Position numbers and translations under genes: made by a program. The notes below the pieces were generated by a model. It did not search any database. It was given only the letters and a program-made list of their open reading frames with translations, and was not told the origin of the DNA. A stretch of DNA of 64,000 nucleotides from Candidatus Doudnabacteria bacterium (lineage in GTDB: Bacteria; Patescibacteriota; Doudnabacteria; UBA920; O2-02-FULL-48-8). The stretch spans positions 696,235 through 760,234 of the forward strand of contig JBBCGO010000001.1 in NCBI GenBank assembly GCA_037200925.1, written 5' to 3'. Below are positions 9,935 through 63,769 of the stretch, in pieces (positions within the stretch are counted from its first letter, which is position 1; each line of letters opens with the position of its first letter).

Positions 9935-9950
9935 TAATTGATATAATTAC

Positions 9951-10083
9951 AAAAAATTTGAGTCGCAGCCCAGCTCGTGCTTGCAAGAGCTGGGCGAGAA
10001 CAAATTTTTTGAGAGGAGCATCTGCAGATCGTAGCACATTTCGCCTTTTGCGAAATTGCGAAGTATCTGCAAGACTGCGACGA
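9951..10083 (+). other. conserved structured noncoding element, copy 1 (A-run/T-run-closed hairpin plus conserved 3' tail abutting tRNA-Val)
   Basis: AAAAAATTTG...CAAATTTTTT outer stem encloses AGTCGCAG-[hairpin]-CGAGAA. It is followed by GAGAGGAGC...GCGAAGT.TCT...GAC.GCGACGA. This is paralogous to 21174-21286 with covarying stems. Confidence 0.45.
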
Positions 10084-10158
10084 GGGCGGTTAGCTCAGTG
10101 GTAGAGCATTTCTTTGACGTAGAAAGGGTCGCTGGTTCGATCCCAGCACCGCCCACCA
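10084..10158 (+). tRNA. tRNA-Val (anticodon GAC)
   Basis: Acceptor gggcggt/accgccc. D arm gctcagtggtagagc. Anticodon loop tt-GAC-gt. T-loop ttcgatc. 3' ACCA. Confidence 0.85.
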
Positions 10159-10256
10159 GAAAATTAAAGCTACGAAATTACGAAAAGTTACGTAAGTACG
10201 AAAGTTTTGTTTCGTATTTTCGTAAAAAATTCGTAGTTCGCAGAGAATCGATCTCT

Positions 10257-10940
10257 ATGGACCTAGAAAAACTCGAGACTAAAATAAAAATACAATTTAA
10301 AGACCGGAACCTGCTGCAGTCAGCGTTGACCCATCGTTCATATCTGAATGAGAACCGCCGCTGGCCGCTGGCGCATAACGAGCGCCTGGAATTTTTGGGC
10401 GACGCGGTTTTGGAATTGATCACAACCGAGTACCTGTACCGGAATTTTCCCAACCCTGAAGGCGAACTGACCAATTTGCGCTCCGCTTTGGTCAATTATA
10501 AGATGTTGTCCGAAATTGCCAGCAGCCTGGAACTGGATAAGTACATTTTGCTTTCCCGAGGAGAATCAAACGATATGGGAAGAGCTCGCCAGGTGATTTT
10601 GGCAAATGCAATTGAGGCCTTGATCGGCGCGATCTATCTGGACTCGGGATTTGAGGTATCAAGAACTTTCATCCATGATTTTGTGATCAATCATCTGGAA
10701 ACCATAGTAAATGCCGGCAATATCCTGGACCCCAAAAGCAAATTTCAGGAACTGGCGCAGGAAAAGCTGGGCGTGACGCCGCATTATAAGGTTTTGGCCG
10801 AATGGGGGCCTGATCATAACAAAAATTTTGAGGTTGGAGTGTTTATCAATGACAAGCAGATCGCCAAGGGTTCAGGCCCGTCCAAACAGGAGGCGGAAAT
10901 TGCGGCGGCGGAAAACGGCCTCAAGGTTTCTGATCTATAA
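10257..10940 (+). CDS. rnc: ribonuclease III
   Basis: RNase III signature ERLEFLGDAVL. C-terminal dsRBD. Start set at MDLEKLE, because the ORF-track N-terminal extension (10056..) runs through tRNA-Val. Confidence 0.9.
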   Translation: MDLEKLETKIKIQFKDRNLLQSALTHRSYLNENRRWPLAHNERLEFLGDAVLELITTEYLYRNFPNPEGELTNLRSALVNYKMLSEIASSLELDKYILLSRGESNDMGRARQVILANAIEALIGAIYLDSGFEVSRTFIHDFVINHLETIVNAGNILDPKSKFQELAQEKLGVTPHYKVLAEWGPDHNKNFEVGVFINDKQIAKGSGPSKQEAEIAAAENGLKVSDL

Positions 10941-20757: not shown

Positions 20758-21125
20758 CCAACCTCGGATCGGCGGGAGAGAAGCTGGTTGCTGAAACCTA
20801 TCAGGAGCAGGGCTGCCGGTTGCTTGAAAAAAATTATATCTTTCCTCACGGCAAACAGATCGGAGAGATCGACCTGATTTTTGAAAAAGACAAAGAGATC
20901 ATATTCGTGGAAGTGAAAGCACGTTCGTCTGAGAAATTCGGCGGTCCGTTCGAGGCGGTGGATCTTAATAAGCGCAGAAGGCTGATCAAAACAGCCAAAT
21001 TATATCTTCAGCTGCATCCTAAATTTCTGGAGCACAATTACCGGATTGACGTGGCAGGAGTCGATATTGACAACCCAACCGAACCTGTTATAATACTTAC
21101 GAACGCTATTGAAGATTTAGATTAA
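20754..21125 (+). CDS. yraN: YraN-family (UPF0102) endonuclease
   Basis: YraN core GEIDLIFEKDKEIIFVEVKAR, about 120 aa. Confidence 0.75.
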   Translation: MTNLGSAGEKLVAETYQEQGCRLLEKNYIFPHGKQIGEIDLIFEKDKEIIFVEVKARSSEKFGGPFEAVDLNKRRRLIKTAKLYLQLHPKFLEHNYRIDVAGVDIDNPTEPVIILTNAIEDLD

Positions 21126-21147
21126 ACGAGCATTAAGCTCGTTTTTT
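21126..21147 (+). terminator. rho-independent terminator after yraN
   Basis: acgagc-atta-gctcgt hairpin plus TTTTTTT. Confidence 0.7.
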
Positions 21148-21173
21148 TGTTACAAGGAATATTTTAATTAACG

Positions 21174-21286
21174 AAAAAATTGAGTCGCAGACCCGCAGGG
21201 TCGAGAACAATTTTTTCGAGAGGAGCGGCAAGTAGACCGAAGCGTATTTGCAAAGCAAATCGCGAAGTGTCTATCCGACGCGACGA
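21174..21286 (+). other. conserved structured noncoding element, copy 2 (ends at the nusA ATG)
   Basis: AAAAAATTG...CAATTTTTT outer stem, AGTCGCAG-[gaccc-gca-gggtc]-CGAGAA, then GAGAGGAGC...GCGAAGTGTCT...GACGCGACGA. Paralog of 9951-10083. Confidence 0.45.
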
Positions 21287-22420
21287 ATGAATGAGCAGTT
21301 TGAACAGGCGCTGAATCAGATCGCCGAAGAGAAAGATATAAATAAAGAAGAGATCTTGAAAATGATCGAGGTTTCTTTGGCCGCGGCTTTCCGCAAAGAT
21401 TACGGCAAAAAAGACCAGAATATCGTGGTCGAGTTTTTGCCTGACACTTTAGGCACGAAAGTCTTTGACGTGAAAAAAGTCGTAGAAGAAGTAACCGACC
21501 CGGTTAAAGAAATGACCCTTGAGGATGCCAAAAAAGCGAAAAAAGGCGCTAAGGTCGGCGATGAGATAAAAATTGACATCACGCCCAAAACCGGCGCCAC
21601 ATTCGGCCGGATCGCCGCGCAGACCGCAAAGCAGGTCATTGTCCAGAAGATCAGGGAAGCGGAGCGGGGAGTGCTGTTCACGGATTATAAAGCCAAAGAG
21701 CGCCAGTTGGTTTCAGGGATTGTCCAACGAATTGAAGGCGAGACTGTACTGATAGATTTGGGGAAAACCACGGGAGTTTTGTTTCCTTCCGAACAGATCA
21801 AAGGTGAGAAATATGCCATAGGCGCACGGATCAAAGTTTTAATTCTGCATGTTGAACCCACGGCCAAGGGACCAAAGATCACATTATCCCGATCGCATCC
21901 GGACGTGGTCAGAAGGCTGTTTGAAATTGAAGTGCCGGAGATCTTTAACGGCATTGTTGAAGTCAAAGCCATCGCCCGCGAAGCGGGAAGTCGGACCAAG
22001 ATCGCAGTCTGGTCGTCACAGGACGGCGTGGACCCGATCGGCGCTTGCGTGGGCCAGCGCGGGACCCGCGTGCAGGTCATCATGGCAGAGCTCAACGGCG
22101 AAAAGATAGATATCATTTCCTGGTCTGAGGATCCCGTGAAATTTATCGCCAATGCTTTGTCCCCGGCAAAGATCTTGAATGTGACGTTGAACGAGGATGC
22201 CAAAGAAGCCAAGGTCGGTGTGCTTGAGGACCAGCTGTCTTTGGCCATCGGCAAGACCGGTCAAAACGTCCGGCTGGCAGCGCGGTTGACCGGCTGGAAA
22301 ATTGATATTGCGGAAGAGAAAATTTCAGGAGGCCAGCCTGAGTCGGAGGTGACGAGCGAAGAATTAAATCCGGAAGAACCCGCTGTTGCCGCGGAAGGAG
22401 AACAAATAAATGCGCAATAA
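21287..22420 (+). CDS. nusA: transcription termination/antitermination factor NusA
   Basis: NusA N-terminal domain, S1 domain and two KH domains ([21 protein letters not shown]). Start trimmed to MNEQFEQ. Confidence 0.9.
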
Positions 22421-23009
22421 AATAATAGAGATGCCTCTGGTGCCGATGGTGGTTGAAAAATCCCAATTCGGCGAGCGGGCCTTTGACATCTATTCAAGGC
22501 TTTTGAAAGAAAGAATTATTTTTTTGGGCGAGGCGATCGATGATCATGTGGCGAATTTGGTGATCGCTCAATTGCTGTTCCTGGAAGCAGAGGACCCGAA
22601 GAAAGAAATTAAACTGTACATTAATTCTCCGGGTGGCTCGGTCACATCCGCTTTGGCGATCTATGATACCATGCAGTTTGTAAAAGCAGATGTGATCACG
22701 GTCTGCATCGGACAAGCCGCTTCTGCCGCGGCCGTACTTCTGGCCGCTGGCGCTGCCGGAAAAAGAATGTCACTGCCGAACGCGCGCGTCATGATCCACC
22801 AGGTCATGGGCGGAGTGGAAGGCCAGGTGCGCGATGTCGAGATCCAGACCAAAGAAATGGTCCGCATCAAGCATCAGATAAACGACATTTTGATCAAACA
22901 CACAGGGCAGTCATTGAAGAAAATTGAAACTGACACTGACCGAGATTTCTTCATGACCCCGGAAGAAGCAAAAAATTACGGTCTGATCGACAAGGTCATT
23001 CTGCCGTAG
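22410..23009 (+). CDS. clpP: ATP-dependent Clp protease proteolytic subunit
   Basis: ClpP catalytic Ser/His/Asp context ([15 protein letters not shown]). Confidence 0.9.
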
Positions 23010-23461: not shown

Positions 23462-26400
23462 ATGAGCCAAAATAAAATCAAAATTTTAGCGCTCAAAGTC
23501 ACCATAAGTATTTTAATACTTGGTTTTGTCGCACCTGATATTTTTCCGATCCAGGCTTATTTTATTCCTATTGCACAGGCTGCAACGGGTGTGCCGAAGG
23601 CATTTAGCTATCAAGGCCGTTTAACCGATTCAACCGGCGCACTGCTGGGGGGAGCGGGAACTAACTATACTTTTAAATTTTCCATTTGGGACAGTGCCAC
23701 GCCTCCCGGTGGGACACGGTTGTGGCCAGCAAGCCCGCCCGGTTCTGTAACGCTTAATGTTACCCAAGGAGTGTTCAACGTAAATATTGGAGATACGGCG
23801 CATGGTTATCCGGATGCGCTGACATTTGATTTCAATTCCACCGATACGGCATATCTGCAAGTCGAAGTTTTAAATCCTGCTACCTCCACGTACGAAACTT
23901 TATCACCGCGGCAATTGATCGCATCTTCGGGCTATGCGATCAATGCCGGGACAGCTACTGCCTTGCAGACAGCTCGGAATATAAACGGCGTACCTTTCAA
24001 TGGCACAGCGGATATTACTATCCCTTCCAATACAGACGCCGGAGCTTTAACCGGTACGACCCTGGCCGCTAATATAGTTAATTCATCTTTAACTTTGGTG
24101 GGACACCTGGTTTCAGGCACGCTCATCGGCACTCAGACTTTTACCAACAACAATATTTCTGACAGCGGAGGACTCACAATCGACTCGGGTGGCGCTTTGA
24201 ATTTAGGCACATCTACTTCGACCAGTGTTTCGATTGGCAAAACAGGAACCGTCACCACGATTAATGGTTCTCTGACGATCCCGAACTACATTGACTTCAC
24301 TAACTTAACCGCACCTGCCTACAAGGAGGGCCGATTATTCTACGATCCTGTCAGCAAGTCTTTATCTTTCTACAACGATCTCAGTGGGCTTAGTTTGCAT
24401 ATTGGTCAAACACTCTGGACACGTGTAAAAAATGTAACAGGTGCAACAATTCCCAAAGGTTCATCCGTATATTTTAGCGGTGTTGACGCATTTGGTTTTC
24501 CAACAGTTGCTAAAGCCCAGGCAAACAGTCCCGTAACTACCCAATCAGCAGGAGTTACAACCCAGGATATTCCGAACGGAGCTTATGGTTATGCCACCGG
24601 CGTCGGTTTGGTTGAGAACCTTGATACCTCAGCATTCACCGCGGGTGACCGGCTTTTTCTGTCGCCTACAACACCCGGCGGGTTTGTAACAACCCAGCCT
24701 GCTGCTCCGTTTTTTTCAATGCCTATTGGACGGGTCATAAAATCTGATGCTGTCTCAGGTAGTATTGAAGTTGTCGCTACTCCATTCACCATCGGTGCAT
24801 TTACCTCCGGTTCAATGATATTTGCAAGCCCATTAGGTTTGACGGCCCAGGATAATGCCAATCTGTTCTGGGACAATGCAACAAAGCGCTTGGGCATCGG
24901 TGACAATACGCCTGCGGCAACTCTGACCATCGGCAACGGCACAGCCGGCAGCGGTCTGTTTGAAGTGTTCGGGGCCAACGGCAATGTCACGACGCAAGGC
25001 GATATTACTTTGGCAAACGGAGGAGGCAGCATCACCGCAACAGGCGGCGGTCTGACATTAGTTGGCGGAGCGGCTTCCAATCTTTCAACTACGGCTGGCA
25101 ATATTACGTTGCAGCCTGCAGGCGCCGGAACGACTGCAAATGTACAAATTGGAGCAGGTGGGGCTGGATCAGCAACGCCAGATCTTCTGGTCGTGGATGC
25201 GAAATCATCGGCGGGTGATCCGGCCGGTACCAATGGCGCGATCTACTACAATATTGCTAATAACAGATTCCGTTGTTTTGAAAATAATGCGTGGAAAGAT
25301 TGCGATTCCGTCACTGCCGCAACTTTGCAGGTCGCTTATAATAATAGCGGAGCGATTACGACTTCCGGATCCCATGATATTGCTTTCACGCTCACGTCCG
25401 GGAATTTCATCGCTTCCGGGGCTGGCTCAGTAAATCTTACTCCGACCGCTGCTTCATCTTTTACTTCCGGAGGCGCGTTAACTCTGACTGGGGGAGCGGC
25501 ATCCGCATTATCTACCACTTCCGGTGATCTTACTTTGCAAGCCGGTTCAGGTACGGTTTCCCTGGGTAGCTCGACTAATTTGACCGCAGCAACCGGCTTA
25601 ACTATCTCAACAGGATTCGGCAATATAATATTGCATCCGGCAGGAGCCGGAACAACGGCCACTGTCCAGATCGGTTCCGGCGGAGCCGGCTCTACCGCTC
25701 CTGATCTGTTTGGCGTTGACACAAAGTCAGATGCCGGAGATCCGGCAGGATTTAATGGAGCGATGTATTACAATACCAATTCCAACAGTTTCCGCTGTTA
25801 TGAAAACGGGGCATGGAAAAATTGCGATACGACAGGCGGAACTACAACATTACAATCGGCTTACAGCGCCGGCGCAACTATCACGACCGGAAGCTCAACT
25901 GATATTGTATTTACGCTCGCTTCCGGAAACTTCGATGTTTCAGGGGCCGGCTCGGTAAATCTTACACCCACAGGTAACTCCAGCTTTACTTCTGACGCAA
26001 ATTTAACACTCACTTCCGGTACGGCAACTACATGGGGCACAACTGCCGGAGATCTGACTTTGCAAGTTAACGGCGTCGGGACTACAGGCAGTGTTCATAT
26101 TGGAGCTGGAGCTCCCGGTTCCAACGGCCCTGATCTGTTCGGCCTTGATGTGAAATCAACAGCCGGCGATCCGGCCGGGTATAATGGAGCGATGTATTAC
26201 AACGGCTCATCAAACGTTTTCCGTTGTTTTGAAAATGGAGCATGGAAAGATTGCGGTGCGACGGGAAGCGGAGGAGGATTGTCACTGCAGCAAACGTACA
26301 TAAATGGTCCAACTATTACTACGACCGCGTCAACTGATCTGGCTTTGATCCTTGCTTCCGGTGATTTCACAGCCTCGGGAGCCGGTTCGGTAAATCTTAA

Positions 26401-29400
26401 CCCGACAGGTGCTTCCAGTTTTACTTCCGGCGGAGCATTAACGCTTACCGGCGGAGCGGCATCTGTTTTCGGAACGAGTGCCGGAGATCTGACTTTGCAA
26501 GCTGCCGGAAATGGAACTACGGCAAATGTTCATATTGGCGCAGGAGGTGTCGGGTCCGCCACGCCGGATCTGCTTGCTTTGGATGTGAAATCTACAAGCG
26601 GAGACCCGACCGGTGTCAACGGGTCAATGTACTACAATGCGAGTACAAACAGGTTCAGATGTTATGAAAATAACGCTTGGAAAGATTGTGATATCAGCGG
26701 TACTGATACTTTGCAAACTGTTTATAATAATGGCGCAACTATTGTTACAGCCGGTTCCGTTCCAATCACGTTTAATCTTGCGTCGGGAAATTTTAATGTC
26801 TCCGGCGCAGGGTCTGTAAATCTGACCCCAACCGGAGCGTTAACGCTCACCGGAGGCGCTGCGTCAACATTCTCAACAAGTTCCGGCGCGCTCACAATCG
26901 ACTCAGCAGCTACTTTGAATTTAGGCACCACTAATGCCACCGGAGTCTCCATCGGTAAAACAGGAACTGTCGCCACTGTGAACGGTTCGCTTACGATACC
27001 AAATTACATTGATTTTACGAACACGGTAAAGCCGCCGTATTCTGAAGGCCGAGTTTTTTATGACACAACTGACAAGACTCTTGCATATTATAATGATGCC
27101 TCTAACAGTACGCTGAACATCGGTCAGGAAGAATGGATCCGTGTTAAGAACATTACCGGCACCGATATTGCCGATGGCAAAGTAGTATATATTAGCGGTT
27201 CCTCAGGAGGCATACCGACAGTTGCGTTGGCCAGGGCTGATAGTCCAACTACTTCTCAGGCGGCCGGCATCACAACTAATGCGATTCCCAACGGCAGCAT
27301 CAGTTATATTACTAATTTTGGATTAATTCATAAGGAGAATACCGCGTCGTTCAGTGCGGGAGACCAAATATTCCTTTCAGCCACATCTGCGGGTGATTAC
27401 ACGGCCACCAGGCCCTCTTCCCCGAATCTTACGGTAAAACTTGGTTATATCGCAGTGTCAGATTCAACTTTAGGCATTGTTCTGGCAAATATCGCGCCAG
27501 CGCCGTTTCAATCTGGAATTTTAGGTACCGGCAGTATCCCGTTTGCCAATTCCAGCGGCCTGTTGATTTCAAATAACAACAATTTATTTTGGGACCAGGT
27601 AAATAACCGTCTCGGTATCGGTGACAATACGCCCGCAGCAACTCTGACCATCGGCAATGGCACACCCGGCAGCGCCTTGTTTGAAGTTTTTGGGTCAACT
27701 GGAAATATAACGACGAAAGGGGATATTAATTTGGCTGCCGGCGGTACTATTACAGGTACCGGTCCTTTGGCCATTACTGCAACTGGAGCAAATGCTCTAA
27801 CTTTAGATACAGGAACTACGGGTACAATCAATATCGGTACCGGGATTTCTGGCAAAACTATAAATATTGGCACAGACAACACCGCTGCTGATACGATTGT
27901 CATCGGTTCTTCTCTGGATACTCTTAAACTGGGAAAGTTCAATACGGCTAACGCCATTATCTATACTGCGAATGGAACTACCGATGGCACTCTGGCCTCA
28001 ATAGCCAACGGTACGACAGGGCAATGTTTGGTAGCCACCACAGGGCTTGCCCCTGCTTGGGGAACGTGTCCTGCAGATGCAAGTGCTCTTACAGGAACCA
28101 CTCTTGCAGCCAGTGTAGTTAATTCTTCCTTAACATCAGTTGGAACGTTAACAGGCCTGACCGTCACTGCTCCCATCATAGGTTCTATCACTGGTTCCTC
28201 CGGTTCTACTACCGGCAATGCTGCAACTGCCACCACTCTCGAAACTGCCAGACTCATCAACGGAGTATCATTCAACGGTTCTGCTGACATCACGGTAGCT
28301 GCCGATGCCGGCACTCTGACCGGAAACACTCTTGCTGCGAATGTGGTTAATTCATCTTTAACTTCAGTCGGACCCTTAACAGGTCTTACTGTCATTGCTC
28401 CTATTGCCGGCAGCGTCACCGGTTCAGCCGCCACTGTTACAGATGCTGCACAACCGGCTATTACTTCCGTCGGAACGTTAACAGGTCTTACGGTAACAGC
28501 GCCGATAGTTGGAAGTGTGACAGGAAGTTCCGGTTCTACCACAGGCAATGCTGCTACTGCTACAAAGTTGGAAACGCCTCGTCTCATCAACGGAGTTGCT
28601 TTTGACGGCTCAGCAGATATTACGATCACTGCCGTTGCTGCAGCAGGAACTCTGACAGGTACAACCCTTGCAGCCAATGTGGTTAATTCTTCCTTAACAT
28701 CTGTAGGAACATTGGCAGGATTGACTGTCACAGCTCCGATAGTAGGAAGTGTTACTGGTTCCTCCGGTTCTACCACAGGCAATGCGGCTACAGCTACCAC
28801 TCTTGCAACCCCAAGACTAATCAACGGGGTATCCTTCAATGGTTCTGCCGACATCACAGTTACAGCAGCAGCAGGAACTCTGACAGGAACAACCCTGGCA
28901 GCAGGAGTCACAGCTTCATCTCTAACATCTGTAGGAACATTGGCAGGCTTGACTGTCACAGCTCCGATAGTAGGAAGTATCACAGGCAATGCGGCAACAG
29001 CAACCACTGCTACTTCTGCCACCAACCTTGCCGGAGGCTTGGGAGGCCAGATCCCTTACCAATCAGCTGCAGGAACAACAGCATTCTTAGCCAATGGTAC
29101 TGCAGGACAAGTTCTTCAAAGCAACGGCACAACCCTGGCTCCTACTTGGGTTGCAGCTGCTACCGGAACACTGACCGGATTATCGGTTGTATCAGCAAAT
29201 GGTTTTGCCGGATCTTCCAGCGGCGGCACCACCCCTGCTATTACTATCTCAACCACGATCACAGGATTACTAAAGGGGAATGGAACAGCCATATCTGCTG
29301 CCACAGCAGGCACTGATTATTCCCTGGGAACCTCTGCTTTAGCCACCGGTATCTTAAAGAGCACCACCACTACAGGGGCATTAAGTATTGCAGTGCCGGC

Positions 29401-32400
29401 GGACTTCCCGGTATTGAACCAGAACACTACTGGCTCTGCCGCAACATTAACAACCCCCCGCCTAATCAACGGGGTATCCTTCAATGGTTCTGCTGACATC
29501 ACAGTTACAGCAGCAGCAGGAACTCTGACAGGAACAACCCTGGCAGCAGGAGTCACAGCTTCATCTCTAACATCTGTAGGAACATTGGCAGGCTTGACTG
29601 TCACAGCTCCGATAGTAGGAAGTATCACAGGCAATGCGGCAACAGCAACCACTGCTACTTCTGCCACTAACCTTGCCGGAGGATTAGGAGGCCAGATCCC
29701 TTACCAATCAGCTGCAGGAACAACAGCATTCTTAGCCAATGGTACTGCAGGACAAGTTCTTCAAAGCAACGGCACAACATTAGCTCCGACTTGGGTAGTT
29801 CCAAGTTCAATAGCAGCAGCAGGAACTCTGACAGGAACCACTCTTGCAGCCAATGTGGTTAATTCATCCTTAACATCTGTAGGAACATTGGCAGGCCTTA
29901 CTGTCACAGCTCCGATAGTAGGAAGTATCACAGGTTCCTCCGGTTCTACCACAGGCAATGCTGCTACAGCTACCACTCTTGCAACCCCCCGCCTAATCAA
30001 CGGGGTATCATTCAACGGTTCTGCCGACATCACAGTTACAGCAGCAGCAGGAACTCTGACAGGAACAACCCTGGCAGCAGGAGTCACAGCTTCATCTCTA
30101 ACATCTGTAGGAACATTGGCAGGATTGACTGTCACAGCTCCGATAGTAGGAAGTATTACGGGGAATGCCGGGAGTGCGACCAAGCTAGCAACACCTCGCC
30201 TCATCAACGGAGTTGCTTTTGACGGCACTGCCGATATTACAATCACCGCAGCTGCGGCAGCTGGTACTCTGACCGGCACTACTCTGGCTGCCAATGTGGT
30301 CAACTCGTCCTTAACCTCAGTAGGAGCTTTGGTTTCCGGAACACAGATCGCTTCTCAAACGTTTACCACCAACAACATTGCAGACTCAGGAGCCTTGACC
30401 ATAACTTCAGGGGGAGCTGGCAATTTGGCGCTCAACTCTGCTTCAGGCATAGTGACTTCCAACGGCACAACCGTAACATTGGGAGGCTCAGCCACCATCA
30501 ACGGAGGCAATGCCGCTGCCGGCACCTTAACCTTAGTCTCCACTACCAATGGCACTAAGGGTGATATTCAATTTTTCTCATCCGCTAACAAGATTACTTC
30601 AGCCGGCGCTCTGACCATTGCCGGACCAATAGTTGCTTCCAACTTCACCGGCACATTGACCGGCACCAACACCGGAGACCAGACCATAACCTTAACCGGA
30701 GATGTCACCGGATCAGGCACCGGTACATTTGCCGCTACGATTGCCCCGAATGCTGTGACGACAGGTAAGATCCTTGACGGTACAATTTTAAATGCTGATC
30801 TTGCTAATTCAACAATAGGATTGCTTATTGGTACATCTGGAACAGATGTAGGCGTAACGGGTTCTCCCGCATCACTTGGGGGCAGCCTTACCCTCAATAT
30901 TCCAAACGCCTCCGCAACCAACCGTGGAGTGCTTACCGCAGCCGACTGGGCAGCGTTTAATTCTAAACAGGCAGCTTTTGGATATACGCCGGAAGATGTT
31001 GCTAATAAATCATCAAATGTCAATCTTGGCACTTCCAATATTTTATATCCAACTCAAAATGCGGTAAAAACTTATGTTGACAATCTTACCACTGGCCTCA
31101 TTTGGCAAAACCCGATAGAAAATGCCGGCGTTATTGCCGATACGGCAACTCCGGTCGGATCTCCAGTGAGCGGTGATTCTTACATAATTAATACCGGCGG
31201 CAATACCGGCGTTTGGGCGGGTTTCAGTGCCGGGGACCTGGTCCAGTACCAAGGGACTACATGGGTAAAGGTCAAAAGTCTTGTGGTCGGAGACCGCTTT
31301 GGCGTGAGTTTCTTGTCTCCGACAGTTCCATCCGGAGCCATGACAGGAAAAAGTGACAACCTGGTACAAGTCAGCGGCGGAACTCCCGGCGCATTTACGT
31401 ATACCTTTATCGCCCCAGTAAACAACTATGCAGTGTTTGATCAAAATCCAAACAGTATGAATTACGGAGTGTCCTTCACTTATACCTCATCACTCGGAGA
31501 ATGGGTTGCGCTTTCCGCAAATACCAGATTATCGGCAGGCAACGGTCTGCAAACGGTCGGAACTACCGTAAGTTTAGGAGCCTTGACTGCGGACTGGAAC
31601 CAGACAGGTGTGTTCAATATCAACACCGCAGGCAATGTCAATGTTAACGGCGGAACCCTTGGCACAACAGCATTAACCGGGAATCTTTTTAATACTACAG
31701 CGACAACTTTAAATATTGGCGGAGCTGCGACGAATATTGTCTTGGGAGCCGCAGGCGCAACCCTTACAGGGGGCGGAGCGCTTACTATCAGTTCAGCTCC
31801 AACGACTGCTTTAACTCTTGATTCCGGCACCACCGGAACCGTTAACCTTGCCACAGGCAATAATGGCAAGACCGTCAACATCGGCACCGGTACTTCCGGA
31901 GATATTATTAACATCGGTACGAATAATACAACTGCCGACACCATCTCTATCGGCTCTGCTCTTGATTCACTTAGTATCTCGTCGGCTCACTTTACAGCCA
32001 CCTCAGCCGGAGCGTTGACCATTTCCGGAGCTTTGTCTGCCTCCAACTTCTCCGGCAGTTCATCCGGCACAAACACCGGAGACCAGACTTCTGTTTCCGG
32101 CAATGCCGGTACGGCAACAGCCCTTCAAACACCTCGAGCTATTAATGGAGTAAATTTTGATGGAACTGCTCCGATTACCATCACGGCCGCTGCCGGAACC
32201 TTAACCGGGACCGTCCTGGCTGCCAATGTAGTTAACTCTTCTCTAACATCAGTAGGAACCTTAGCAGGCTTAACTGTCACAGCTCCGATAGTAGGAAGTA
32301 TCACAGGCAATGCGGCTACTGCTACCACTGCTACTTCTGCCACTAACCTTGCCGGAGGATTAGGAGGACAGATCCCTTACCAATCAGCTGCAGGAACAAC

Positions 32401-35400
32401 AGCATTCTTAGCCAATGGTACTGCAGGACAAGTTCTTCAAAGCAACGGCACAACCCTGGCTCCTACTTGGGTTGCAGCTGCTACCGGAACACTGACCGGA
32501 TTATCGGTTGTATCAGCAAATGGTTTTGCCGGATCTTCCAGCGGCGGCACCACCCCTGCTATTACTATCTCAACCACGATCACAGGATTACTAAAGGGGA
32601 ATGGAACAGCCATATCTGCTGCCACAGCAGGCACTGATTATTCCCTGGGAACCTCTGCTTTAGCCACCGGTATCTTAAAGAGCACCACCACTACAGGGGC
32701 ATTAAGTATTGCAGTGCCGGCGGACTTCCCGGTATTGAACCAGAACACTACTGGCTCTGCCGCAACATTAACAACCCCCCGCCTAATCAACGGGGTATCC
32801 TTCAATGGTTCTGCTGACATCACAGTTACAGCAGCAGCAGGAACTCTGACAGGAACAACCCTGGCAGCAGGAGTCACAGCTTCATCTCTAACATCTGTAG
32901 GAACATTGGCAGGCTTGACTGTCACAGCTCCGATAGTAGGAAGTATCACAGGCAATGCGGCAACAGCAACCACTGCTACTTCTGCCACTAACCTTGCCGG
33001 AGGATTAGGAGGCCAGATCCCTTACCAATCAGCTGCAGGAACAACAGCATTCTTAGCCAATGGTACTGCAGGACAAGTTCTTCAAAGCAACGGCACAACA
33101 TTAGCTCCGACTTGGGTAGTTCCAAGTTCAATAGCAGCAGCAGGAACTCTGACAGGAACCACTCTTGCAGCCAATGTGGTTAATTCATCCTTAACATCTG
33201 TAGGAACATTGGCAGGCCTTACTGTCACAGCTCCGATAGTAGGAAGTATCACAGGTTCCTCCGGTTCTACCACAGGCAATGCTGCTACAGCTACCACTCT
33301 TGCAACCCCCCGCCTAATCAACGGGGTATCATTCAACGGTTCTGCCGACATCACAGTTACAGCAGCAGCAGGAACTCTGACAGGAACAACCCTGGCAGCA
33401 GGAGTCACAGCTTCATCTCTAACATCTGTAGGAACATTGGCAGGATTGACTGTCACAGCTCCGATAGTAGGAAGTATTACGGGGAATGCCGGGAGTGCTA
33501 CTACTGCTACCAACGCTACTAATACCGGAATAACAGATGATACTACTACCAATGCATCGGTATATCCGACCTGGGTAACTGCTAATACAGGAAACCTGCC
33601 TCAAAAAGTTTCTTCAACCAAACTTTTCTTCAACCCTTCTACCGGGTTATTAACTTCTACAGGATTTGCAGGGCCTCTAACAGGAAATGTAACCGGTAAT
33701 GTTACTGGTTCCTCCGGTTCTACCACAGGCAATGCTGCTACAGCTACCACTCTTGCCACCCCCCGCCTAATCAACGGGGTATCCTTCAATGGTTCTGCTG
33801 ACATCACAGTTACAGCAGCAGCAGGAACTCTGACAGGAACAACCCTGGCAGCAGGAGTCACAGCTTCATCTCTAACATCTGTAGGAACATTGGCAGGCTT
33901 GACTGTCACAGCTCCGATAGTAGGAAGTATCACAGGCAATGCGGCAACAGCAACCACTGCTACTTCTGCCACTAACCTTGCCGGAGGATTAGGAGGCCAG
34001 ATCCCTTACCAATCAGCTGCAGGAACAACAGCATTCTTAGCCAATGGTACTGCAGGACAAGTTCTTCAAAGCAACGGCACAACATTAGCTCCGACTTGGG
34101 TAGTTCCAAGTTCAATAGCAGCAGCAGGAACTCTGACAGGAACCACTCTTGCAGCCAATGTGGTTAATTCATCCTTAACATCTGTAGGAACATTGGCAGG
34201 CCTTACTGTCACAGCTCCGATAGTAGGAAGTATCACAGGTTCCTCCGGTTCTACCACAGGCAATGCTGCTACAGCCACTGCTTTGCAGACACCACGAGCT
34301 ATTAATGGAGTAAACTTCGATGGCACTGCTCCGATTACTATCACAGCGGCAGCAGGCACATTAACAGGAGCTACATTAGCAGCCAATGTACTTGCCTCGT
34401 CCTTAACATCCGTAGGAACACTTACGAGTCTTTCTACTTCCGGCCAGATCACATCAAGTCTTGCGACAGGAACTGCACCATTTATCGTCGCCTCCACTAC
34501 AAATGTTGCCAATCTAAATGCTTCTTCTTTGAACGGCGCAACCTTTGCCGCTCCAGGAGCCATCGGAAGCGGAACAGCCAGCACCGGGGCTTTCACCGGA
34601 CTTACTCTAGCTGGTCTTGCCGGCAACAACGCCGTGCTCTATGCCACAACCGGCACTGGAGTTGTAGCAACAGCTCCTACTTCTACCGCAGGCTTATGTT
34701 TAACCTCCGGAGCTGGGGCGGGATTTGTTCCTGTTTGGGCCGCTTGCGGCGGAGCAACTCCTACATTACAAACAGTTTATGCCGCGGCTTCCGGCAACAC
34801 CATTACTACTACTGATGCCAGAAACATTGCTTTCACTTTTGCTGATACCGCTACTGACCAATCCTTGACCTTAACTCAGCAGGGAACTGCTCCTTCCTTG
34901 ATCGTGGATGATACCAATGCCGGCACCAACACTGCCATAGACATCAGATCAGGCGGAGCGACCAAGCTGACTATTAATGAGCTGGGAACTATCTCTACTT
35001 CGGGAAACATTACAGTCAGCGGCACCGGCACCATTACCTCCGCAGGATTAGTTACAGCATCAGCCGGCCTAACTGTTACGACCGGAGATCTGGCTATCAC
35101 CGGCGGCAACTTATCCTTGGGCGGCACACAAAGGATCTCCAATGCCGGAGTGGGAGCGTTCATCACCGGCACAACAATCGGCTCCATGACTTTTACTACA
35201 AACAACATCGCAGACTCAGGAGCATTAACTATCAAATCGGCCGGCACTAATCCTTTAACCTTAGACTCGGGTACTACCGGAACAATTAATATTGGCACGG
35301 GTACTGCAGGCAAAACCATCAACATTGGGACAGACAATACAACTGCCGACACGATTGTCATTGGTTCTCCTTTAGATACCATAAGACTTGGCAAGTTTTC

Positions 35401-49640: not shown

Positions 49641-51100
<1,460 letters not shown>

Positions 51101-63305: not shown

Positions 63306-63380
63306 GGGTGTGTAGCTCAGTGGTAGAGCACGTCACTGATAATGACGGGGTCGGAAGTTCGATCCTTCCCACACCCACCA
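63306..63380 (+). tRNA. tRNA-Ile (anticodon GAT)
   Basis: Acceptor gggtgtg/cacaccc. Anticodon loop ct-GAT-aa. T-loop ttcgatc. ACCA 3' end. Confidence 0.85.
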
Positions 63381-63388
63381 GAAAAATT

Positions 63389-63641
63389 TATGCATTTTAT
63401 TTCAGGAACGATCGGAGTGATAGCAGGGATTTTGCTCATTCGATACTCCGTCGCGCTCACCGATATCTTTGGCCGGGTTCAATGGGCCGAGAATCACCTT
63501 CGCGGAGGACTGGCCGGCACGTATTCTTTGTACCGGATCGTTGGCGTGGTTTTCGTAATCCTTTCGCTGTTTTACATATTTAATGTTTTAGGTTTTATAC
63601 TCAGCCCTTTAAGTTCGATATTTGGCGGCCTTAAGCAATAG
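63389..63641 (+). CDS. small membrane protein (84 aa)
   Basis: Two hydrophobic helices. No SD. The longer ORF-track version overlaps tRNA-Ile. Confidence 0.3.
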
Positions 63642-63695
63642 ATTTCATAAAATTAGGGAAATTCCGAGCAATCCGGGGAGTTGCGAATGACTAAG

Positions 63696-63769
63696 GGGCC
63701 TGTAGCATAGTGGTAGTGCACCCGGTTTGCATCCGGGGGGTGGGAGTCCGATTCTCCCCAGGTCCACCA
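63696..63769 (+). tRNA. tRNA-Ala (anticodon TGC)
   Basis: Acceptor gggcctg/caggtcc with G3:U70 identity pair. Anticodon loop tt-TGC-at. ACCA 3' end. Confidence 0.85.

Follow-up and report, generated by a model that had tools for sequence, protein, structure and literature searches.

A stretch of 64,000 nucleotides (nt) from a Candidatus Doudnabacteria bacterium (GenBank assembly GCA_037200925.1, contig JBBCGO010000001.1, positions 696,235 to 760,234; from here on the window) contains two copies of a structured leader element. We call the family to which both copies belong X. X is about 115–135 nt long and consists of two hairpin domains. Judged by comparison of its copies, X is real, structured and under selection, and it is a well-supported RNA family. 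Its 17 distinct copies occupy about 13 loci, and all the contigs that carry them resemble the candidate phyla radiation (Doudnabacteria-like). Every copy lies in the sense direction of the gene downstream. Fifteen of the 16 complete copies end 0–2 nt before a start codon or before the 5′ end of a mature tRNA, and the sixteenth ends 3 nt before a tRNA. Flush placement in sense, inside leaders of 20–40 nt, cannot be the result of chance.

Two Copies of X in the Window

The first-pass annotation of the window, made from its letters alone, had described two copies of a structured noncoding element, one before tRNA-Val and rnc and the other before nusA. Both copies are where the annotation placed them (Table 1). 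The pattern GAGTCGCAG-N(5-35)-CGAGAAC matches twice in the window and never in 100 shuffles. A covariance-model search with the filters off returns the same two copies as its only matches in the window. Both copies also fold better than shuffled sequences: copy 1 has a minimum free energy (MFE) of −54.4 kcal/mol (z = −4.95), and for copy 2 the z score is −3.02.

The anatomy that had been proposed for the two copies stands in each detail. The A/T outer stem is there with its matched length difference of 1 base pair (bp), AAAAAATTTG/CAAATTTTTT versus GAAAAAATTG/CAATTTTTTC. Both copies keep the internal loop AGTCGCA/GAGAA. Their inner hairpins are unlike in sequence and pair in both cases. Then follows GAGAGGAGC and a second hairpin with compensatory changes, and GCGAAGT and GCGACGA are conserved in the two copies. 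The junctions are also as described: copy 1 abuts tRNA-Val, as located by ARAGORN, and copy 2 abuts the nusA ATG. The position of this ATG is backed by alignment of its product (MNEQFEQ) with the N-termini of NusA in relatives (MNE(A/Q)FE). The description of the second hairpin can be refined. It is longer than had been described, since GGAG(C/U)AGU at its base pairs with the tail AUU(G/A)CGAC.

Structure and Covariation

Domain 1 starts with an A/U-rich outer stem of 10–11 bp that covaries between copies (AAAUUUG/CAAAUUU, AAAAUUG/CAAUUUU, AAAACUG/CAGUUUU). The stem leads to an internal loop made up of AGUCGCA (5′ strand) and GAGAA (3′ strand), and the inner hairpin above this loop is free in sequence and length. 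A linker, (U/C)GA(G/A)A, connects the two domains. At the base of domain 2, GGAG faces CGAC, which gives two G-C pairs flanking a tandem G.A, and next to it (C/U)AGU pairs with AUU(G/A). Higher up are a covarying stem of 6–7 bp, a symmetric 3x3 loop (C-G-N-A-G/C-G-N-A-G), G-C pairs and a variable apical hairpin. The gene product follows the last helix pair after 1–3 bases, usually GA.

Covariation supports this fold, as the first-pass annotation had argued for an RNA-level element from two copies. In a model-based alignment of the 17 copies, 91.9% of the cells are standard pairs, compared to 78.4% when columns are shuffled, and none of 500 shuffles comes up to the observed figure. Compensatory changes on both sides are seen in 24 of the 39 pairs. 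When the 3′ partners are slid by 1–3 columns as a control, pairing falls to 31–46%. A MAFFT alignment, which is not fitted to the structure, gives the same picture, with compensatory changes in 18 of 30 pairs. Helices 1 and 2 are paired in 100% of the 17 copies and contain seven compensatory pairs; helices 3–6 are 86–100% paired.

The base of domain 2 gains support from a single variable position. One base of the tail covaries with the base after GGAG (columns 79–164), as C-G in nine copies, U-A in five and U-G in one. A competing pairing, between the tail CUGCGAC and GUCGCAG in the 5′ loop, spans 7 nt in some copies. We rejected it as the main structure because the tail covaries with the base after GGAG and not with the invariant C of the loop.

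Table 1. Positions of X, its parts and the adjoining features, counted from the first nucleotide of the window
Feature	Position	Strand	Remarks
Extended −10-like box TGaTATAAT	9939..9947	+	3 nt 5′ of copy 1; putative promoter, judged from its sequence
X copy 1	9950..10083	+	134 nt, entire leader up to tRNA-Val +1; model R1 106.3 bits, E = 1.8e-24
Copy 1 domain 1	9951..10010	+	outer stem 9951-9960/10001-10010
Copy 1 domain 1 loop	AGUCGCA 9961-9967 / GAGAA 9996-10000	+	encloses variable inner hairpin 9968-9995
Copy 1 Shine-Dalgarno-like purine tract GAGAGGAG	10011..10018	+	G10015 and G10018 pair with C10081 and C10078
Copy 1 domain 2, long hairpin	10015..10081	+	base GGAG/CGAC with tandem G.A, covarying stems above
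Copy 1 domain 2 3x3 loop	CGUAG 10030-10034 / CGAAG 10059-10063	+	variable apical hairpin on top
Copy 1 tail CGACGA	10078..10083	+	final helix pair 2 nt from tRNA-Val +1
tRNA-Val(GAC)	10084..10158	+	adjoins copy 1; ARAGORN, Rfam
TACGAAA hairpin	10173-10241	+	between tRNA-Val and rnc
rnc	10257-10940		downstream of tRNA-Val(GAC); identified by homologues
Older nusA leader	21067..21147	+	5′ of copy 2; promoter TTGACA-16-TGtTATAAT (12/12) 21067-21094 in the 3′ end of yraN (UPF0102); hairpin and T-run 21124-21147
X copy 2	21172..21286	+	115 nt, last base precedes nusA ATG; model R1 115.2 bits, E = 1.2e-26
Copy 2 domain 1	21173..21217	+	outer stem 21173-21182/21208-21217
Copy 2 domain 1 loop	AGUCGCA 21183-21189 / GAGAA 21203-21207	+	inner hairpin 21190-21202
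Copy 2 Shine-Dalgarno-like tract GAGAGGAG	21218..21225	+	domain 2 hairpin and 6-nt tail between tract and nusA ATG
Copy 2 domain 2	21222..21284	+	3x3 loop CGAAG 21238-21242 / CGAAG 21263-21267
Copy 2 tail CGACGA	21281..21286	+	nusA start codon at 21287 directly next
nusA	21287..22420	+	gene behind copy 2; clpP then at 22410-23009

Distribution of the Family

Copies of X were collected with one exact-pattern scan of species-representative genomes and one of Joint Genome Institute (JGI) metagenomes, followed by a covariance model (R1) built from 15 copies. The patterns demanded AGTCGCAG, CGAGAA(C) and GAGAGGAG. Hence the invariance of these motifs in 16 of the 17 copies was imposed by the search. 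The sole copy found by the covariance model alone (L028:1669-1780) keeps both loop motifs and carries GAAAGGAG as its purine tract, which is still fully complementary to the sequence in 16S rRNA that pairs with Shine-Dalgarno (SD) sequences, the anti-SD. Within a genome X is rare, with two to about five copies.

X has no counterpart in the collections that were searched. In IMG/VR, a pattern without the requirement for the SD tract gave 21 matches, all of them chance or coding; the covariance model rejected them, leaving zero copies of X. At the gathering threshold, Rfam recognizes only rRNA and tRNAs in the whole window. In Rfam 15 the two window copies match nothing beyond noise under 22 bits at E<=10, and six further copies match nothing at E<=1. 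Literature searches returned no description of X. An RNA family new to the databases had been one of the alternatives offered by the first-pass annotation, and this alternative is borne out. The checks suggested there have the same outcome: the Rfam scan contains no match, and there are further copies in other contigs (17 together with the two of the window), with a covariance model and covariation to support them.

One weak match of the covariance model (L007:874-924, minus strand, E = 0.31) has the look of a miniature X, a hairpin followed by GCGAGGAGCAC-GAA-GUGCGACGA. It lies 24 nt 5′ of a lipoprotein-like open reading frame (ORF) and is not flush with it. The match is probably due to chance; alternatively, it could be a degenerate or minimal relative of X.

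X Ends Where the Gene Product Begins

The genes behind X are of very different kinds. Among protein genes they are nusA (two genomes), nusB, the genes for the ribosomal proteins L23 (two genomes), L33 and S20, fpg, and a T2SS-F/PilC gene (pilC). Among tRNA genes they are tRNA-Val(GAC) followed by rnc (two genomes), tRNA-Glu, tRNA-Ala(GGC) (three contigs), tRNA-His and tRNA-Leu(UAA). None of the 17 copies lies in a 3′ region, inside a gene or antisense to one.

The junction follows the same rule in both classes. Before protein genes the element reads ..CGACG, then 0–2 bases, then ATG; in L022 the tail and the ATG share one A, the last base of the tail. Before tRNA genes the tail is followed by 0–1 bases and then by +1, and the tRNA-His copy stops at the encoded G-1. 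The loosest junction is that of the tRNA-Val copy in L041, where a variant tail (GCACCGA) and three bases (UUA) precede the tRNA and the last helix pair lies 5 nt from the start. In all other copies a distance of 1–3 nt separates the end of the helix from the start codon or tRNA +1. Ordinary tRNA genes on these contigs are preceded by leaders of 10–25 nt.

At the other end of X, an AT-rich −10-like hexamer is found 5′ of nearly all 17 copies, in several cases as TGnTAnAAT. The distance from this hexamer to the invariant C and the purine after it is mostly 2–7 nt, and sometimes 12–22 nt. Many copies therefore probably begin at or near the start of transcription. For copy 1, transcription is predicted from these signals to start at the purine after the invariant C (9950). 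Three copies lie 15–30 nt from an upstream tRNA or from the old nusA leader hairpin, and these three may be internal to longer transcripts.

Some of the loci have peculiarities of their own. At one of the tRNA-Ala loci (L043:2776-3172, minus strand), X is followed by the first 21 nt of tRNA-Ala(GGC), a hairpin, a few tRNA bases, a small GIY-YIG-like ORF (MIFTTYILRDKSGRLYKGVTNNLVRRLREHESGH...) and finally a complete tRNA-Ala. This looks like a mobile GIY-YIG insertion with a duplicated 5′ part of the tRNA gene. Directly 5′ of the X that precedes an L23 gene in L053 there are about eight tandem copies of GGAATAT (L053:75-134, plus strand). The L23 proteins encoded behind X (L007:5670-6083 in reverse-complement coordinates; L053:259-657) carry an N-terminal extension of 40–50 residues that is rich in lysine and glutamate. 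These L23 genes appear to be transcribed from their own leader, and not solely within an S10-type operon.

Gain, Loss and Recombination

Comparison of orthologous loci shows that X is gained or lost there and that it is portable. X is absent before nusA in five relatives whose NusA proteins are 83–92% identical (L002, L003, L004, L075 and L077), as well as in a sixth, where gene spacing is the only guide. It is absent before tRNA-Val and rnc in five relatives (L079-L083). At such loci a short spacer runs straight into the gene; it measures 0–35 nt at the tRNA and about 30 nt at nusA. Loci with X retain a spacer of like length and sequence, and X sits exactly between this spacer and +1 or the ATG. 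At one of the loci without X (L079:2829-2835) the tRNA-Val starts right after the stop codon of an upstream membrane-protein gene, with ..ATCTAG running directly into GGCAC... With no spacer, this tRNA is embedded in a transcription unit from ftsH to rnc.

The two arrangements of the window recur elsewhere, X before nusA in L038 and X before tRNA-Val and rnc in L041. The orthologous copies at both loci have diverged from those of the window with compensatory changes, and their loops are kept. This indicates that once X is in place it is inherited vertically under purifying selection.

Before nusA, X has been added to an older leader. The older promoter, a perfect match to the sigma-70 type, with its hairpin and T-run (Table 1) is found at the same position in the five X-less relatives with the similar NusA proteins. 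From its sequence, the conserved hairpin with T-run looks like a leader terminator or attenuator, possibly one involved in NusA autoregulation.

Within genomes, X precedes non-homologous genes: tRNA-Val and nusA in the window, fpg and L33 in the metagenome-assembled genome MFER01, and also tRNA-His, pilC and L23 in sample Ga0209542. A homologous 5′ region at non-homologous genes, patchy among relatives, is the pattern of a putative mobile promoter or propagated 5′ region. Paralogous copies can be mosaics. In one aquifer population the L33 and tRNA-His copies share the hairpin of domain 1 (0.94 identity) and not domain 2, and the fpg and L33 copies share domain 2 (0.89) and not domain 1. Such mosaics point to recombination between copies.

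Two relatives (L077:11911-12267 and L078:10444-10800) carry a bAvd-type gene two genes 3′ of nusA (Pfam PF22296, the accessory protein of diversity-generating retroelements). Hence reverse-transcriptase systems are present in the clade.

A Possible Role at the Start Site

The purine tract at the junction of the two domains resembles an SD. The 3′ end of the 16S gene in the window reads GGAUCACCUCCUUUCUAAGG / CACCUCCUUUCU, so the canonical anti-SD is kept. In copy 1 the tract GAGAGGAG offers eight contiguous potential pairs, one of them G.U, with the 16S 3′ tail CCUCCUUUC. The general form GA(G/A)AGGAG likewise offers eight with CUCCUUUC; its G/A position faces U, and both variants pair. In three close relatives an SD-like motif within 20 nt of the start is found in 5 of 52 called genes (about 10%). 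X thus carries an unusually strong SD in an SD-poor genome.

The tract is not at the normal distance from the start. It lies 60–90 nt 5′ of the ATG, off initiation spacing as would be expected of a stabilizing tract of the STAB-SD type, and is also present before tRNAs. In the predicted ensembles of most copies GA(R)A is free, and GGAG pairs with the tail through its two outer G residues. In the nine mRNA copies the last helix pair is 1–3 nt from the AUG, and the tail, counted from the base that pairs with the final G of GGAG, is 5–7 nt long up to the AUG. With the hairpin removed, all nine have the spacing of a split SD (about 5–9 nt); this measure is inapplicable to the seven tRNA copies.

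We read X, tentatively and with rather less than an even chance of being right, as a portable cis-acting leader that clamps or bridges an SD at the start site and gives the RNA a structured or protected 5′ end. X would be transcribed as a cis-acting 5′-leader module. On mRNAs it would work like a "split" ribosome-binding site bridged by a hairpin. Opening of the weak GGAG/CGAC base, with the remainder of domain 2 still folded, would bring the SD effectively 6–8 nt from the AUG. Such bridged spacing would explain why X needs to abut the ATG. The 5′ end may also be shielded from decay of the RNase Y/J type (the window encodes RNase Y) by domain 1 in combination with a 30S subunit bound to the SD-like tract, in the way of STAB-SD and 5′ stem-loop stabilizers. 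The near-invariant loops (AGUCGCA/GAGAA and GNA/GNA) are probably read by a partner, either a protein or the ribosome. This partner could set the clamp open or closed and thereby co-ordinate the control of tRNA, ribosomal-protein and Nus-factor genes. On tRNA genes, RNase P would remove X.

Several points weigh against the bridged SD. Seven of the 17 copies precede tRNAs, where an SD is pointless; these copies are equally flush and keep the SD-like tract. Flushness at tRNA genes is left without explanation by an SD clamp. A plain stabilizer or ribosome-binding site would not need about 16 near-invariant loop nucleotides. Furthermore, GGAG is partly sequestered, so X could repress initiation instead of promoting it. 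Conservation of AGTCGCAG, CGAGAA and GAGAGGAG is only weakly tested by the copies at hand, as the search imposed these motifs. Finally, base-pair chemistry gives no independent signal for the strand: in the well-aligned helices there are 8 G.U pairs versus 9 A.C mismatches, which is uninformative. The strand of X is assigned from its strict sense orientation.

Alternative Explanations

Could X be a propagating element of little use to its host, that is, a mobile promoter or 5′ untranslated region (UTR) cassette, or a small repeat, which spreads by recombination between copies and keeps its structure for its own spread or for harmlessness? X is sporadic among close relatives and sits 5′ of non-homologous genes, a situation described as "promoter propagation" (PMC3488235). 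It is accompanied by a −10-like box, domains are shuffled between the paralogous copies of one population, and the same genomes hold other small portable leader hairpins and tandem repeats. However, such an element should not be found 17 times out of 17 in sense and 16 times out of 16 (complete copies) flush with a gene, never in 3′ regions, within genes or antisense. Terminal inverted repeats and target duplications were not found, copy numbers are low, and orthologous copies diverge in a compensatory manner with their loops kept, which is purifying selection on RNA. We consider such a largely selfish X unlikely, though it retains some weight. A processing module, which we also regard as unlikely, would direct a cut at its 3′ boundary or right beside it, made by X itself or by a guided nuclease that takes the base of domain 2 as its reference point. 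As a result the RNA downstream would begin at the mature 5′ end of the tRNA or at the AUG, in the latter case as a leaderless or nearly leaderless mRNA; the leader cut off would be thrown away or used again. No other model has a single rule for tRNA- and mRNA-linked copies, all of which end 0–3 nt from a functional 5′ end, including G-1 of tRNA-His. It also fits the old spacer, which is kept without X, and the position of X exactly at the −1/+1 junction when it is present. Conserved internal loops in two hairpin domains capable of docking are typical of small ribozymes, and AGUC opposite AGAA, flush with the outer helix in loop 1, is generally known from loop A of the hairpin ribozyme. Yet self-cleaving ribozyme families give no match even at E<=10, domain 2 contains nothing like loop B of the hairpin ribozyme, and a cut at AGUC would fall at the 5′ end of X instead of its 3′ end. 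Copies differ in how far the last helix pair lies from the start (1–3 nt, 5 in L041, and the tail A being the A of the AUG in L022), so a cut at a fixed position would leave ragged ends. The 10–25 nt leaders of ordinary tRNAs mean that RNase P is used in these organisms anyway. A more elaborate version makes X a 5′-end-maturation module (a small ribozyme or the guide of a dedicated nuclease) that cuts its own 3′ edge and maybe spreads by RNA-level joining and reverse transcription. Joining of the released leader to mature 5′ ends would explain why X occupies the −1/+1 junction with the old spacer upstream; as a whole this version seems improbable to us.

Control by a ligand or a protein is quite unlikely as well. 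Here X would be a sensing leader of the riboswitch or ribosomal-protein-leader type, in which domain 1 senses and the GGAG/CGAC helix carries out the response, and it would define a regulon of genes for the translation and transcription apparatus. The near-invariant internal loops, an effector helix that covers the SD and the start region, and a gene set enriched in tRNAs, L23, L33, S20, NusA and NusB speak for sensing. On the other hand, fpg and pilC fall outside such a regulon, and orthologues in close relatives manage without X, which is unusual for riboswitch regulons. A switching structure lacks covariation support, the pairing of GUCGCAG in the 5′ loop with the tail is contradicted, and no Rfam aptamer matches (two window copies at E<=10, six more at E<=1). 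Little speaks for X as a small RNA that acts chiefly in trans. It would be set free with ..CGACGA at its 3′ end by RNase P or a different nuclease and would, for example, occupy the anti-SD of the 30S subunit or bind a protein. The flush tRNA junctions would indeed yield a precise 3′ end without a terminator, conserved single-stranded tracts and an 8-nt complement of the anti-SD are features of a binding RNA, and X has its own −10-like box. But in more than half of the cases an ORF follows, and no known enzyme would free X there; several divergent paralogues per genome are unusual for a small RNA; we give this idea a low probability. Least probable of all is the hypothesis preferred in the first-pass annotation, a shared RNase III target that serves rnc autoregulation and nusA processing or regulation as in Escherichia coli. 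In the predicted fold about 20 bp stack almost continuously in each domain, interrupted by internal loops, and this length matches an RNase III site; X precedes tRNA-Val–rnc and nusA in the window and again in L041 (rnc) and L038 (nusA). The argument from rnc and nusA fails on the other copies: most of them precede unrelated genes, at 11 loci without a connection to rnc or nusA (L23 twice, L33, S20, nusB, fpg, pilC, and tRNA-Glu, -Ala, -His and -Leu). Nor is X tied to the two genes, as it is missing before tRNA-Val and rnc in five relatives and before nusA in six. RNase III does not need strongly conserved loop sequences, and a better candidate site already lies between tRNA-Val and rnc and is duplicated before nusA in other genomes.

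This better candidate is a second portable leader element, a long imperfect hairpin of about 25–30 bp built from TACGAAA/TTTCGTA units (MFE z scores from −4.6 to −7.8; Table 1 for its position). The hairpin also occurs in the rnc leaders of L079 and L080, and a second copy is found in the nusA leaders of these same two genomes (L075:9886-9965, L077:9887-9964). Judging by its sequence and distribution, the TACGAAA hairpin, and not X, is a good candidate for a natural RNase III substrate that links the rnc and nusA leaders. Other relatives (L041, L081 and L082) have different AT-rich short-repeat hairpins in its place.

A number of further identities were rejected. X is not an intrinsic terminator: 8–9 nt separate its U-run from the G+C hairpin, the U-run is taken up in pairs with the 5′ A-run, and a terminator scan makes no call on the plus strand. 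For the same reasons the transcription attenuator that had been offered as an alternative is a weak proposal. X does not encode a leader peptide either. An AUG or near-cognate codon 5–8 nt after GGAG is present in only about 7 of the 17 copies, some of these are AUG-stop, they lie inside stems, and the ORF is inconsistent. A miniature inverted-repeat transposable element (MITE), a repetitive extragenic palindrome (REP) or a palindrome-associated transposable element (PATE) of the IS200-605 type would be expected to have terminal inverted repeats or duplications, which X lacks; in addition, all 17 copies are in sense and flush with a start, and copies within a genome have diverged. With boxA/Nus sites there is little in common, as the rRNA leader of the window shares only AACAAUUU with X, where it is part of a covarying stem. 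Resemblances to the sarcin-ricin loop (CGAGAGGA) and to 5S rRNA (CCGUAGCGC), as these sequences are generally known, are short and non-structural, and we judged them to be chance. "Life without RNase P" does not apply, given the ordinary leaders of the other tRNAs in the same contigs.

Comparison with Known Systems

For a leader that stabilizes RNA through an SD there are precedents in Gram-positive bacteria. The STAB-SD of cry3A in Bacillus thuringiensis is an SD-like 5′ stabilizer (PMC4113751), and hbs in B. subtilis is reported to combine a strong SD with a structured 5′ UTR (PMC5737220). Like these stabilizers, X has a polypurine SD-like tract that is complementary to 16S rRNA, lies off the normal spacing and could act on any RNA, and it adds a 5′ stem-loop. 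STAB-SD differs from X in being a bare sequence that lacks a two-domain fold, does not abut the start codon and does not occur before tRNAs; 30S binding to X is a prediction. A second parallel are split ribosome-binding sites, of which gene 38 of phage T4 is a generally known case. In X, too, the SD is far from the AUG, with a hairpin of about 85–105 nt and a 6-nt tail in between. The split sites as generally known, however, are single-gene curiosities and do not form a multicopy family with conserved loops, and the comparison gives the tRNA-linked copies no role.

Putative mobile promoters and their propagation (Matus-Garcia et al. 2012; PMC3488235) are defined by near-identity at the DNA level. 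As with these, a 5′ stretch stands before non-homologous genes in one genome and is patchy between relatives. X differs in that its copies have diverged with compensatory changes, its loops are conserved and it obeys a strict rule at the 3′ junction. The compensatory divergence and the conserved loops indicate selection on the RNA fold.

X also recalls the RNase III sites in the rnc and metY-nusA-infB leaders of E. coli and the Correia/NEMIS repeats of Neisseria, as commonly described, for it is a helical leader and concerns rnc and nusA in the window. Unlike those sites, X is not linked to rnc or nusA across genomes and has neither a long perfect duplex nor terminal inverted repeats. The TACGAAA hairpin of the window fits this class better.

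The hairpin ribozyme (RF00173) and RiboJ insulators, in their familiar form, share with X two helix-loop-helix domains, AGUC opposite AGAA next to the outer helix, and the concept of a leader that would define the downstream 5′ end. The likeness does not extend to the details. Loop 1 of X is 7x5, with an extra GCA / G on the inner side, and not 4x4. Loop B of the ribozyme (AGAAACA / GUAUAUUAC-like) is not found in X, whose domain 2 loop is CGNAG/CGNAG, and RF00173 does not match X at E<=10. Finally, like ribosomal-protein leaders and riboswitches, X is a structured leader with a helix over the SD and the start, and several of its targets are ribosomal proteins. X differs from them in its mixed gene set, which includes tRNAs, and in its absence from close orthologues, and neither a known aptamer nor an rRNA mimic was recognized in it.

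Other Features of the Window

The 16S rRNA gene of the window lies about 12 kb from a tRNA-Ile/tRNA-Ala pair (49641-51099 and 63306-63769), with protein genes in between. This pair is normally found in the 16S-23S spacer, so the separation points to an unlinked or split rRNA operon. A single ORF of 4477 amino acids occupies positions 23462-36895.

Implications

Structured cis-acting leaders are well known, and X as a kind of leader is nothing new. New is that the same element is common to tRNA and protein genes, that it is flush with the functional 5′ end, and that it carries a sequestered SD in an SD-poor lineage. No family known to us stands before tRNA genes as well as protein genes and without exception stops where the first base of the functional product lies. 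To our knowledge, almost nothing is known about the noncoding RNA biology of the candidate phyla radiation, to which X adds a new RNA family and a compact part. If X is indeed cleaved at its 3′ edge, then it would be a natural device for making leaderless mRNAs. If instead X clamps an SD, then a lineage that has largely given up the SD would still use the anti-SD for chosen core genes, and X would show how such a module moves from gene to gene.

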